A stretch of DNA of 28,645 bases from a virus. This document shows positions 6,694 through 12,328 of this stretch, in pieces (position 1 is the first letter of the stretch; each line of letters opens with the position of its first letter). The stretch spans positions 1-28,645 of the IMG/VR virus record IMGVR_UViG_3300024259_000123. One strand, 5' to 3'. The notes under the pieces are model-generated. The model saw nothing but the letters and a program-made list of their open reading frames with translations, was not told the DNA's origin and made no database searches. The position numbers and the translations under genes were made by a program.

Positions 6694-7671
6694 ATGAGCA
6701 CATGCAAAATATGTAAAAAGAAGTTCAAATCAGGTCGATCATTAGGTTCTCATATAACATCAGCACATAGAAAAAAGTCTTGTAGTGTTTGCGGTGAAGA
6801 CGTTCCTGTCATGACGTTCCGTCGACATGAAAAATCCTGCGCTAACAAAGCCCAAAAAAAGGCATGTCCTTGCTGCGAAAAGCAATTTGCTGGGAACAAC
6901 AAATTTTGTTCAAGATCTTGTGTTGCCACATTTACGAATAAGGTTCGCTCAAAACGTTCTGCGTCAACGCGCAAAAAAATATCGTTGACGCTAAAGGGCA
7001 AGACACGCTCGAAAATGAAAACGTCGCCATGCAAGGCTTGCAACAAACCAATCACGCATGTACCGTCTAGGAAAAGATCATATTGTGACAGAAAATGTAT
7101 GGTCAATTCTGGTACGTGGCGAAGAAACCTCGCTAAGTCGCTCAAAGGAAAGAAGAAGAAAAGGCGAGGTGGCCCAAGAACCGGCCATGGTCGTAAAGGA
7201 AAGTCTAGTAAGACAGGATGGTATAAAGGCTATTGGTGTGACTCAAGCTGGGAGCTGGCATGGATAATCTATAATTTGGATCACAAGATTCAATTTGAAA
7301 GAAACATGGTTGGGTTTGAATATTCATACCTTAACAAGCAAAGAAAGTATTATCCGGATTTTTTGCTGCCGGACGGTTCATATGTTGAAATCAAAGGTTT
7401 TTCCAACAAACAATTTGAAGCTAAAAAACGAGATTTCCCGCATGCATTACGCGTTTTGTATCAAAAAGATATGGAATCATATTTGGCATATGTCAAAAAG
7501 AAACATGGAAATGATTTTATATCATTATACGATGGAAATCCACATAATATGATACTTAATAAGTGTAAAGTATGCGGCGCTCCGGTAAAATATACATACT
7601 GTGGTCAAAGTTGCGTAATGAAAGACAGGCATAAGCAACGCCGCAAAAAGAACAATGCAGTATTGGTGTAA
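6694..7671 (+). CDS. homing-endonuclease-like protein: tandem Zn-ribbons (CxxC...FCSxxC) plus C-terminal PD-(D/E)xK nuclease domain
   Basis: 325-aa ORF that is AT-rich relative to its neighbours and has no clear SD. Four CxxC modules, including CPCCEKQFAGNNKFCSRSC. C-terminal GWYKGYWCDSSWELAWII...PDFLLPDGSYVEIKG fits the PD-x(n)-E-x-K pattern. Paralogous to 11855 and related to 23586. Confidence 0.6.
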   Translation: MSTCKICKKKFKSGRSLGSHITSAHRKKSCSVCGEDVPVMTFRRHEKSCANKAQKKACPCCEKQFAGNNKFCSRSCVATFTNKVRSKRSASTRKKISLTLKGKTRSKMKTSPCKACNKPITHVPSRKRSYCDRKCMVNSGTWRRNLAKSLKGKKKKRRGGPRTGHGRKGKSSKTGWYKGYWCDSSWELAWIIYNLDHKIQFERNMVGFEYSYLNKQRKYYPDFLLPDGSYVEIKGFSNKQFEAKKRDFPHALRVLYQKDMESYLAYVKKKHGNDFISLYDGNPHNMILNKCKVCGAPVKYTYCGQSCVMKDRHKQRRKKNNAVLV

Positions 7672-7730
7672 CGGTAGCACATTACATTGCCTGTGTGATA
7701 GTTTCGATTCGAATTCGAAATACTGCTCCA
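7657..7730 (+). tRNA. tRNA-Gly (GCC), CCA encoded
   Basis: Acceptor GCAGTAT/ATACTGC is a perfect 7 bp. Anticodon stem TTACA/TGTGA with loop TTGCCTG. T-arm TTCGA-TTCGAAT-TCGAA. Ends TCCA. The 5' end overlaps the last 15 nt of the 6694 CDS. Confidence 0.8.
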
Positions 7731-7734
7731 AAAC

Positions 7735-7810
7735 GTCTCGGAAGCTCAACTGGAAGGGCGCCTGACTTCGAATCAGGAGGGTGTGGGTTCGAATCCCACC
7801 CGGGACTCCA
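7735..7810 (+). tRNA. tRNA-Arg (TCG), CCA encoded
   Basis: Acceptor GTCTCGG/CCGGGAC (one G-U pair). D-stem GCTC/GGGC. Anticodon stem CCTGA/TCAGG with loop CTTCGAA. T-arm GTGGG-TTCGAAT-CCCAC. Ends TCCA. Confidence 0.85.
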
Positions 7811-7812
7811 TT

Positions 7813-7886
7813 GCCTGTATAGTTTAGCGGCAGAACCCTAACTTGGTAGGTTAGTAACGCAAGTTCGAGTCTTGCTACAGGCTCCA
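7813..7886 (+). tRNA. tRNA-Thr (GGT), CCA encoded
   Basis: Acceptor GCCTGTA/TACAGGC is a perfect 7 bp. Anticodon stem CTAAC/GTTAG with loop TTGGTAG. T-arm GCAAG-TTCGAGT-CTTGC. Ends TCCA. Confidence 0.85.
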
Positions 7887-7937
7887 AAACTCCCCCAAAA
7901 ATACTTCAAAATAAGCTCACAAAGGTGACACAAAAAG

Positions 7938-7965
7938 TGAACACCACATCCCACATGGGTATTAT
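7938..7965 (+). promoter_or_regulatory. sigma70-like promoter candidate (TGAACA-N16-TATTAT) upstream of the MVP-like gene
   Basis: Hexamers at 7938-7943 and 7960-7965, with SD AGGAG before ATG 8015. Confidence 0.3.
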
Positions 7966-10627: not shown

Positions 10628-10655
10628 TAAACATAGGGATATGTAACCAGACATT

Positions 10656-10700
10656 CGCCCGGTTGGTCCGAAAGGATTGGCCGGGCGTTTGCCTTTGGGG
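10656..10700 (+). terminator. candidate rho-independent terminator after the MVP-like gene
   Basis: GC stem CGCCCGG (10656-10662) / CCGGGCG (10681-10687) with an 18-nt loop, followed by TTTGCCTTTGG. Confidence 0.4.
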
Positions 10701-10715
10701 CTGATATTTATTGAT

Positions 10716-11393
10716 ATGAATAATAATTTGCGCGAATTTGTGAATGAGGTTTTGTCTGATTTTCGTGACGAACTAACATCCCAATATCGCACCCGGAGCT
10801 TCTCAGCTGGACTTGAACACTCACCGTTGAATAAAGCGGAAATGACTTATCGTCGAGAGATCAAGCAGTTATGGAACCTGCATGCTGATCATTCATTTTT
10901 TGAGAATCCGCAACAATTTACAGTTGTTCATGAATTGGGAAAATTCTCGACCGGCGACAGGCTAAATGACTATTTCGACATAGCAGCTATAGGAAATAAT
11001 CCTGGAATCGATAAACCCGCTCGAAATGAACTAAGCTGCTATGCTTATGTTGGTAATACCCACAAAACAAGGAGCCATGTTAGGCACTTTACGTTTAAAC
11101 AAAAGCGTGTGACATTCGTGTCATTTGTTGATGCGGGAACAGAATGGCTTTCTAAGGCAAGAAATTCAGACAAGGAGTTTTATAAAAGTTCAGGCCTACC
11201 AAAACGGCCGCAATTTTCTCCAGAAAAGTTGAATTTTATCCCACTAAACAAAGAAGATTTTATTGCAAAACCTAGGTTTCACATGAAATCTGAAGAGACA
11301 GTCATTGCTCACTGGATCGTCGACACATACTATGGGCATCCTGACGAACAGGAACTGGCAGAACGGCTCGGCCTAAAATTCGAACGGTTTTGA
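10716..11393 (+). CDS. hypothetical protein
   Basis: The ORF track starts at TTG 10677 inside the terminator hairpin. The ATG at 10716 (MNNNLREF...) is more plausible, though its SD is weak. Confidence 0.45.
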   Translation: MNNNLREFVNEVLSDFRDELTSQYRTRSFSAGLEHSPLNKAEMTYRREIKQLWNLHADHSFFENPQQFTVVHELGKFSTGDRLNDYFDIAAIGNNPGIDKPARNELSCYAYVGNTHKTRSHVRHFTFKQKRVTFVSFVDAGTEWLSKARNSDKEFYKSSGLPKRPQFSPEKLNFIPLNKEDFIAKPRFHMKSEETVIAHWIVDTYYGHPDEQELAERLGLKFERF

Positions 11394-11654
11394 TGAACAT
11401 CTCGCCAAGTGTATATACAATAGATATATCCTGTGCGTGGCAGGGAATAAACGCGGTACATTGCTTCACGTTACGATGTTCCGGCGCTTTAGCGTCACAC
11501 AACTCTCGGTCTGTCTAAAGTAAAAGACCGGGTGGGCATGCCAGCCGACAACTAAATAGGGTTTCCAGGTGAACGTGCGTGGCATTCGCACTAGTAACCG
11601 GTTTATAATCAATCAAACTGATACGGGTTCAATTCGTGGCAGATATTTATAAAC

Positions 11655-11861
11655 ATGAAAACATGTCCTAAATGTGGGTCAGCCCATCAAAAAAATGGTC
11701 GATTTTGTTCTCGCCCTTGTGCGAATAGCCGAGGTCCACGAACAAGCAAAGTCAAAAGAAAAATGTCTCAATCGGCAAAGAAATATTTCAAAGAGCACGG
11801 CTATATTGGTGGGTTTGGCAACAAAAGCCCACATAATAAAAACCCAAAAAACCCATGGTGA
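11655..11861 (+). CDS. Zn-ribbon protein (CxxC...FCSxxC), the N-terminal-module equivalent of the 6694-type endonuclease
   Basis: 68 aa. CPKCGSAHQKNGRFCSRPCAN. Stop overlaps the next start (ATGGTGA). Confidence 0.5.
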   Translation: MKTCPKCGSAHQKNGRFCSRPCANSRGPRTSKVKRKMSQSAKKYFKEHGYIGGFGNKSPHNKNPKNPW

Positions 11862-12328
11862 AATGTCCGATTTGTGGTAAAACGCATAAAAACAAGATAT
11901 TTTGTTCTGTTGTTTGCCGGCGGAAAGATGTAAATTATAATTTCTCAAAACCGGCTGGCGGGAACTCCGGTGGATACAGAAGGGGTTCCGGGCGAGGCAA
12001 AGGGGGGTGGTATCAGGGGATTTACTGCGATAGTACATGGGAACTTGCATATGTGATTTGGGCAAAAGACAATAAGAAGGAAATTATTCGAAATAAAGAG
12101 ACGTTTTCATATTACTTCGATGGTAAAGATCGAAAGTTTCTGCCTGATTTCGTTGTCGATGGTGATTTGATCGAAATCAAAGGCTACAAATCGAAACAAT
12201 GGGAGGCAAAAATCTCCCAATTCCCGCAGGAAAGGAAAATTGATGTTCTTTATAAAAAGGAAATGAAACCGATTTTGGAATACGCCATTGAACAACATGG
12301 CGAGACGTTTTATAATCTTTATGAATGA
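11855..12328 (+). CDS. Zn-ribbon + PD-(D/E)xK nuclease (homing-endonuclease-like), paralog of the 6694 C-terminal half
   Basis: 157 aa. CPICGKTHKNKIFCSVVC, then GGWYQGIYCDSTWELAYVIW...PDFVVDGDLIEIKGYKSKQWEAKISQFP, which aligns along its length with the 6694 protein. Confidence 0.6.
   Translation: MVKCPICGKTHKNKIFCSVVCRRKDVNYNFSKPAGGNSGGYRRGSGRGKGGWYQGIYCDSTWELAYVIWAKDNKKEIIRNKETFSYYFDGKDRKFLPDFVVDGDLIEIKGYKSKQWEAKISQFPQERKIDVLYKKEMKPILEYAIEQHGETFYNLYE

Follow-up and report, generated by a model that had tools for sequence, protein, structure and literature searches.

Probable free-standing homing endonuclease genes at tRNA sites and at the start of a purA-like gene in a huge phage

The window analyzed here, the whole of a 28,645-nucleotide (nt) stretch of viral DNA (IMG/VR record IMGVR_UViG_3300024259_000123, positions 1 to 28,645), is part of a huge phage. 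It carries five nuclease genes with a GC content of 35 to 42%, compared to 47.9% for the rest of the window. Three of them are the subject of this study: the gene at 6694 to 7671, a gene split into two overlapping open reading frames (ORFs) at 11655 to 11861 (ORF A) and 11855 to 12328 (ORF B), and the gene at 23586 to 24470. All four ORFs were present at the coordinates given in an earlier reading of the same DNA (the original prediction), which had also described the genes, correctly, as AT-rich and devoid of good Shine-Dalgarno sequences; no such sequence was found at any of the four starts (6694, 11655, 11855, and 23586), while the neighboring genes have one. The same reading had treated the three genes as one homing-endonuclease-like family. 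We found instead that they form two families, that their main context is a link to tRNA genes, which had been missed, and that they are likely to be free-standing homing endonuclease genes.

Presence and absence were compared with one viral contig, IMGVR_UViG_3300031603_000013 (loci L010 and L049), together with distant relatives. This contig is syntenic with the window at 74 to 92% nucleotide identity, and it lacks the 6694, 11655/11855, and 23586 genes as well as the GIY-YIG gene of the window, with clean junctions that were defined by blastn and alignments. These are thus not fixed core genes, an outcome that the original prediction had named as refuting it. The first site comprises the following features.

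6664-7734, plus strand: cassette 1, a nuclease gene with a linked tRNA-Gly(GCC), delimited by blastn and L010 alignments; GC 39.3%
6694-7671, plus strand: nuclease of 325 amino acids (aa) with five Cys/His zinc-finger-like modules and a T7-endonuclease-I-like PD-(D/E)xK core
7657-7730, plus strand: tRNA-Gly(GCC), 41.9% GC (ARAGORN; Rfam, 50.5 bits; alignment)
7735-7886, plus strand: tRNA-Arg(TCG) and tRNA-Thr(GGT), bordering cassette 1 on its right and conserved

At this site, window 6664-7734 stands in place of L010 394-468, where the relative has just a tRNA-Gly(GCC), and the tRNA-Arg and tRNA-Thr genes that follow are kept in both. The window's tRNA-Gly(GCC) overlaps the end of the nuclease ORF by 15 nt, and because it is very unlike the tRNA-Gly(GCC) of the relative, it was probably imported together with the nuclease gene. 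An inverted repeat, GTTTCCTAA...TTAGGAAAC (window 6603-6658), lies just upstream of the cassette and is conserved in the relative. One assembly, L159 (1835-2131), has about 297 extra nt, with a 112-aa ORF, near window 6325-6366, upstream of an 89-aa gene.

The 6694 product has four zinc modules N-terminal of its nuclease core and one C-terminal of it, the modules including CPCCEKQFAGNNKFCSRSC. The core spans residues ~175 to 280 and reads GWYKGYWCDSSWELAW...RN...YYPDF...VEIKG; across an alignment of 122 sequences, its residues E187, D222, E232, and K234 vary little or not at all. By profile search, the closest solved relative of the family was T7 endonuclease I (E = 3.6e-4; YYPDF..VEIKG compared to YTPDF..VETKG), and alignment to 1m0d placed the catalytic Glu, Asp, and Glu-x-Lys of 6694 in the same PDF...E-x-K context. 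Against the T7 endonuclease I family of Pfam (PF05367), 6694 scored 20.6 bits, below the threshold of 29.1, and ORF B gave no match, while some 6694 homologues carry PF05367 as a precomputed domain. The AlphaFold2 models were confident (predicted local distance difference test scores of 88 and 85.8), both predicted structures being PD-(D/E)xK nuclease folds, and we confidently place the modeled C-terminal domains in this superfamily, with its restriction-endonuclease-like alpha/beta core that bears the motif on the central strands. This supports the homing-endonuclease reading, for which confident non-nuclease folds would have been the other refuting outcome. The "ribbons" of the original prediction were modeled instead as tandem beta-beta-alpha zinc-finger-like modules, and the N-terminal part of the model matches tandem C2H2 arrays such as CTCF. 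In one sample (locus L168), the 6694 allele has a 39-nt in-frame deletion (window 6909-6947); its product, P0001 (312 aa), has lost half of the third zinc module.

The nuclease core GWY.G..CDS.WELA...PDF...EIKG, which the original prediction had seen in both the 6694 and the 11855 products, was borne out by BLASTP (45% identity over 107 aa, E = 8e-30). The second member of this family lies at the second site, as follows.

11603-12323, plus strand: cassette 2, a conserved leader and the split nuclease gene
11603-11654, plus strand: 52-nt leader, AATCAATCAAAC...GGGTTCAATTC...AGATATTTATAA, from alignment with the leaders of the closest intact relatives
11655-11861, plus strand: ORF A, 68 aa, first zinc finger and linker of the ancestral gene
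11846-11852, plus strand: A_AAA_AAC, containing an A6 run, in the ORF A frame; formally a slippery heptamer, as read from the sequence
11855-12328, plus strand: ORF B, 157 aa, second zinc finger and complete nuclease core (WELA ... PDF ... EIKG)

Window 11603-12323 stands in place of L010 4322-4400, which is the tRNA-Glu(TTC) gene of the relative. The two intact genes most closely related to the split one are found 62 to 66 nt after a tRNA-Glu(TTC), and their leader, which likewise follows that tRNA, matches the 52-nt leader of the window in both. One of the two, L152, is also syntenic with the window, if distantly related, so that a single locus is seen in three states: empty with tRNA-Glu (L010), with tRNA-Glu, leader, and intact gene (L152), and with the tRNA gone and the gene frameshifted (window). 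A scan of metagenome and viral contigs with a conserved 21-mer for population variants of the tRNA-Glu locus gave only the relative already known.

The zinc motif of ORF A is CPKCGSAHQKNGRFCSRPC, with all four Cys of finger 1 kept; its module resembles the third module of 6694 and is much closer to the first module of other family members. The motif of ORF B is CPICGKTHKNKIFCSVVC, and its E, D, and E-x-K residues, read from the sequence, are kept. The frame of ORF B is -1 with respect to that of ORF A. The two share an open stretch only at 11840-11858 (19 nt), which contains the A6 run, and the stop codon of ORF A (11859-11861) and the ATG of ORF B (11855-11857) overlap within ATGGTGA. The original prediction had taken the pair for the 6694 architecture broken by a frame change at ATGGTGA. 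This was substantiated by a conceptual -1 fusion of ORF A and ORF B, which was colinear with single-ORF relatives including P0122, P0123, and P0010, with the two fingers at canonical spacing; P0122 (269 aa) showed 50% identity across 98% of the fusion. Since ORF A and ORF B together align end to end with single-ORF relatives, we read them as one ancestral two-finger gene broken by a -1 frame change, for which the A6 run at 11846-11852 is the likely site. The missing C-terminal finger is normal for this branch, being absent also from P0123, P0132, P0140, and P0144.

A break in an A6 run could in principle be a homopolymer error of sequencing or assembly that hides an intact gene, and we give this explanation almost no credence. 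The stretch 11655-12328 was found with zero mismatches in nine contigs from eight samples and different assembly pipelines (Logan, JGI, and ENA), and the exact 157-aa ORF B protein was present on at least 22 contigs and indexed in 27 blocks of the collection. Because nine separately assembled contigs are identical across this stretch, the split is not a sequencing artefact, and an error as its source is effectively refuted.

The split could also be a working design, in which a programmed -1 ribosomal frameshift at A_AAA_AAC yields a full-length two-finger nuclease beside a finger-only peptide, or in which the ORFs encode separate DNA-binding and nuclease subunits. The heptamer is a canonical X_XXY_YYZ in the correct frame and inside the 19-nt doubly open stretch, both ORFs are otherwise intact, finger 1 having kept its four Cys and the core every catalytic residue, the arrangement is the same in the nine assemblies, and the ATGGTGA overlap would permit translational coupling. 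We nevertheless regard such a design as quite improbable. No stimulatory RNA structure was detected 3' of the heptamer, the fold of 11853-11935 being no better than that of shuffled sequences (z = -0.38), and none of the 61 other distinct family members has a detached finger ORF, all close relatives being single ORFs. An A-run is, moreover, also the likeliest place for a spontaneous one-base deletion, and since the sampled population is nearly clonal, identity across assemblies is uninformative on selection. As no other member is split and no RNA structure follows the heptamer, a recent one-base loss in the A-run of the inter-finger linker is the simplest reading of the sequence. The original prediction had left two options, a decaying copy or a two-subunit enzyme; with none of the 61 other members split, the former is favored over a designed two-subunit enzyme, and the split copy is probably decaying. 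Some residual activity of ORF B is possible, because it keeps one finger and every catalytic residue and re-initiation would be feasible at the ATGGTGA overlap.

The surroundings of the split gene were compared with a strain, L004, that is 97.7% identical to the window. All 58 mismatches lie outside 10590-12522, so that an identical tract of 1.9 kb that holds the split gene sits within flanks that have diverged by ~9 to 13%. The 238-aa gene beside the split nuclease (10677-11393) is within this tract; it has 47% protein identity to its counterpart in the relative (L010 5996-6703), which lies ~2 kb further along, between other genes. The non-coding segment 11378-11602 is 90.7% identical to the relative, compared to 74 to 87% for most flanking coding sequence, and has no Rfam match; an Rfam scan of 6300-12600 gave no families beyond three tRNAs.

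The leader sequences showed further regularities. The 12-mer AGATATTTATAA occurs exactly at 11641-11652 and 23572-23583, ending 2 nt before the ATG of the split gene and of the 23586 gene, respectively; a copy with two mismatches is found at 13306-13317, at an equal distance before gene 13320, and variants of the form GATAyTTAT are found ahead of 6694 and of the relatives in L152 and L155. The 12-mer may serve as a promoter or as a start signal in mRNAs almost without a leader. The leaders of tRNA-Glu-linked nuclease genes share AATCAAT...GGTTCGA(y) (window 11603-11654, L077, L084, L087, L100, L115, L124, L131, L152, and L155), the second part of which resembles a tRNA T-loop. The idea that these leaders are decayed 3' halves of the upstream tRNA was dropped, local alignments being mostly not significant when compared with shuffled sequences.

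The position of the family relative to tRNA genes was then assessed in the 80 loci (60 distinct proteins) obtained from a family alignment scan of viral contigs. A tRNA gene was present within 200 nt in 54 of the 60 distinct members, compared to 1 of 61 control purA-like loci. The family loci had a mean of 10.5 tRNA genes within 6 kb on either side, 600 of 628 of which were on the nuclease strand. The upstream neighbor was most often tRNA-Glu(TTC) or tRNA-Gly(TCC), at ~50 to 70 nt, and overlap of the stop codon with the next tRNA is frequent, 6694 being one example. Many of the tRNA-Glu genes beside family members (and some for Asp, Lys, and Asn) were called at 85 to 90 nt, which is ~10 to 14 nt over the usual length, long calls being found, e.g., at L077 885-974, L078 5567-5652, L082 3373-3556, and L091 4969-5698. 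In a full-library profile search, 1,466 clusters passed E <= 1e-30, while 7,834 passed E <= 1e-3; the family thus comprises, at 50% identity, at least 1,466 clusters. It was matched above threshold by no model of Pfam or NCBIfam, and PHROG matches were weak only. We found no paper on it in the literature searched, where coverage was incomplete and an earlier description is possible; the family appears to be unnamed.

Location almost exclusively inside tRNA arrays, on the tRNA strand and often with a stop codon overlapping the next tRNA, would also suit an accessory factor for the arrays, either an RNA-binding zinc-finger nuclease in tRNA precursor processing or repair, or a domesticated DNA nuclease that promotes tRNA gene recombination or segmental amplification for the benefit of the phage. 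There is precedent for such a benefit, since tRNA gene amplification driven by the endonuclease SegB benefits phage T6 (PMC13096335). We consider an accessory role, the main rival reading, unlikely on several grounds. The relative (L010) keeps the same tRNA-Gly, -Arg, -Thr, and -Glu genes without either 6694 or 11655/11855, which weakens the tRNA-processing version in particular, and the split copy in the window has no adjacent tRNA. The metal-binding E/D/ExK motif, with T7 endonuclease I as the closest sequence match, points to DNA cleavage; tRNA-splicing endonucleases use a different catalytic set. Furthermore, low GC and decayed alleles (the frameshift and the 39-nt deletion allele P0001) suit selfish elements.

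The third site lies at the start of a purA-like gene.

23512-23574, plus strand: remnant of the ancestral purA-like 5' end, MLTADIVVDCQYGDCG, then out of homology, then a stop
23559-24491, plus strand: cassette 3, comprising a DUF7487 nuclease gene and a new purA-like start; not present in L049
23586-24470, plus strand: 294-aa DUF7487 nuclease with an N-terminal Cys4 motif, YGVxN repeats, and a TnsA-like PD-(D/E)xK core
24479-24535, plus strand: re-coded 5' end of the purA-like gene, which came with cassette 3

The original prediction had joined this gene to the other two on the basis of shared CxxC-x(7-12)-FCSxxC ribbons. Zinc motifs are indeed real in all ORFs, but that of 23586 is CETC-x19-FCSRAC, with a longer spacer, and instead of extra fingers its product has four helical YGVxN repeats of ~23 aa, followed by core residues E193, D227, E240, and K242. 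It matched DUF7487 (Pfam PF24308) with 98.9 bits (gathering threshold 27, E = 5.2e-28) and the TnsA N-terminal endonuclease (PF08722) below the gathering threshold, and BLASTP detected no similarity to 6694 or 11855. Only the nuclease cores are distantly homologous, aligning by profile-profile comparison (hhalign) with a probability of 93% and E = 2.8e-7. By sequence comparison, then, 6694/11855 and 23586 represent two families with different DNA-binding regions, and the single family of the original prediction did not hold.

In L049, the purA-like gene begins directly after its upstream gene, and 23559-24491 is missing. In the window, the first 47 nt of the ancestral start (23512-23558) persist as a dead remnant broken at the P-loop codons, and 24479-24535 duplicates them with changes that are synonymous or nearly so. 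Cassette 3 sits within the 5' end of the purA-like gene, between a 51-nt remnant and the re-coded replacement start. An unrelated phage, in which PurA is only 48% identical, also has homologues of 23586 (44% identity) directly ahead of the purA-like gene, and this argues for a site-specific association with that gene. No remnant of the purA start was found upstream of the homologous nuclease in L064, L065, or L068. The purA-like gene itself (24479-25495) encodes a 338-aa adenylosuccinate-synthetase-like protein with homologues in at least 61 viral contigs; its scores fall well short of the curated PurA and PurZ cut-offs, and a PurZ identity was not supported (135 bits compared to a cut-off of 300). 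In the relative, a 446-aa Ro60/TROVE-vWA gene (L049 11403-12743) comes right after the purA-like gene, where the window has nothing.

Taken together, the three genes are likely selfish, free-standing homing endonuclease genes that would spread between co-infecting related phages. The tandem zinc-finger-like modules of the 6694 family, or the helical YGVxN repeats of 23586, would bind a long DNA site; the PD-(D/E)xK domain would then cut the allele that has no nuclease gene, and recombinational repair from the gene-carrying genome would introduce that gene along with a neighboring, resistant form of the target. The candidate target of 6694 is the resident tRNA-Gly(GCC) gene, its cassette bringing its own foreign tRNA-Gly; that of the 11655/11855 lineage would be the tRNA-Glu(TTC) locus, and that of 23586 the P-loop-coding start of the purA-like gene, its cassette bringing the re-coded start. 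Cassettes 1 and 3 fit such a model of a cut resident and a resistant copy because in each the nuclease gene is accompanied by a stand-in for the neighboring essential sequence. For 11655/11855, the -1 frame change in the linker A-run and the loss of the companion tRNA-Glu would most likely represent the decay phase of the homing cycle. Probable mobility is supported by the absence of the genes from the relative, by a GC content of 35 to 40%, by the identical tract in L004, and by the homologues of 23586 next to a distant purA-like gene. The tract in L004, the re-coded purA start, and the foreign tRNA-Gly are compatible with co-conversion of flanks.

Several points weigh on the other side. A deletion in the relative instead of an insertion in the window is possible at sites 1 and 2. 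The site of cassette 2 is now without a tRNA, and its proposed target leans on relatives; the split copy is free of damage beyond the frameshift, so that decay is not proven. The way the genes are packed into tRNA arrays, closely and on the same strand, would likewise suit a function in expressing or processing tRNAs. Finally, cleavage, target identity, mobility, and biased inheritance are, for all members, what we infer from the observed homology, folds, and junctions.

A further-reaching idea, which we put forward tentatively and hold to be rather less probable than its negation, is that the 6694 family represents natural zinc-finger nucleases, as yet unnamed and forming a very large class, that are specialized for phage tRNA arrays, each lineage recognizing a particular tRNA gene via modular fingers, cutting it in competitors, and installing itself with a resistant tRNA allele. 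If so, the family would be a major force by which large phages replace, duplicate, and exchange their tRNA genes, and a possible source of programmable, compact DNA-targeting modules. The homing mechanism proposed above would, if it holds, explain much of the patchwork of phage tRNA arrays, i.e., duplicated isoacceptors, foreign tRNAs, and gaps of ~0.7 to 1 kb between tRNA genes, and would offer natural examples of zinc-finger-guided nucleases. The empty, occupied, and decaying states of one locus illustrate the homing cycle, and annotators would gain a name for thousands of "hypothetical" or misnamed ("YacG-like") proteins.

The two remaining nuclease genes that the original prediction had listed are also real.

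15976-16641, minus strand: GIY-YIG-like nuclease gene (IIYTY..FYVGQS) with NUMOD3 repeats
27943-28645, plus strand: HNH nuclease gene (HNHHILPKSLGG...EH), running off the window end

At the GIY-YIG locus, window 15991-16768 corresponds to L010 8836-9365, and the relative has a 162-aa HNH gene (plus strand) in the same intergenic site; two nuclease classes, GIY-YIG in the window and HNH in the relative, thus occur at one intergenic locus. Homology to the relative stops at 27884, before the HNH gene.

Elsewhere in the window, an 870-aa protein (8015-10627) has the shoulder and repeat domains of the Major Vault Protein (Pfam E = 4.6e-21) and no PHROG match; its matches in phage databases were three uncultured huge-phage genomes only, at 36 to 41% identity. 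A GenBank search returned no near-identical phage genomes and only distant protein matches to huge phages and Lak phages. A metabolic cluster (16745-21241 and 3825-4484) includes two RNA-ligase-like genes, an IMPDH/GMP-reductase, a fusion of nicotinamide mononucleotide adenylyltransferase and Nudix, and a nicotinamide phosphoribosyltransferase. A PARP-like gene lies at 66-977 and a phage-encoded transfer-messenger RNA at 27089-27448, whose tag peptide, ANDNSEYSYAQAA, is identical in the relative (L049 14934-15293).

Among known systems, T7 endonuclease I (gp3; Pfam PF05367; PDB 1m0d, 1fzr, and 2pfj) shares with the 6694 family the E...PDF...E-x-K-G motif and the strand order. However, the match falls under the Pfam cut-off and covers only ~50 residues, and T7 endonuclease I, a domain-swapped dimer without zinc fingers that is encoded by a fixed core gene, is a small, structure-specific resolvase of Holliday junctions. 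The homing endonucleases with a restriction-enzyme-like fold, I-Ssp6803I and I-Bth0305I, differ in that both are intron-encoded and have other DNA-binding parts, and no sequence similarity between them and the window nucleases was detected. The repeats and C-terminal core of 23586 are shared with DUF7487 (PF24308; PHROGs 12131 and 3339, annotated as "homing endonuclease"), an uncharacterized family on which no paper was found in the literature searched; for this family, the insertion site at the purA start and the duplicated target are new details. Engineered zinc-finger nucleases, in which an array is joined to the FokI cleavage domain, resemble the 6694 family in the fusion of tandem zinc modules to a PD-(D/E)xK domain, whereas the latter is natural, mostly Cys4 with an FCSxxC signature, variable in module number, and has one module after the nuclease.

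The closest parallel is SegB, a homing endonuclease of the GIY-YIG class that is encoded in the tRNA cluster of T4, cuts the tRNA region of a related phage, and is preferentially inherited with its neighbors (PMC2330249); it is widely associated with tRNAs across phages and can amplify them (PMC13096335). The 6694 family and SegB of T4/T6 have in common a free-standing nuclease gene among phage tRNA genes that varies between related phages, the expected cutting of a competitor's tRNA region followed by copy-in with flanking tRNA genes, and a statistical association with tRNAs across many phages. They differ in catalytic class, GIY-YIG as opposed to PD-(D/E)xK, in the zinc-finger array, which SegB lacks, and in that SegB activity is experimental while that of the 6694 family is inferred. 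By this analogy, a SegB-like lifestyle is the best reading of the 6694 family. Free-standing phage homing endonucleases, and SegB among tRNA genes, were already known; the novelty lies in the scale, with at least 1,466 clusters, and in the build, a tandem zinc-finger-like array joined to a T7-endonuclease-I-like domain, in a family that is tRNA-adjacent in about 90% of the cases examined.

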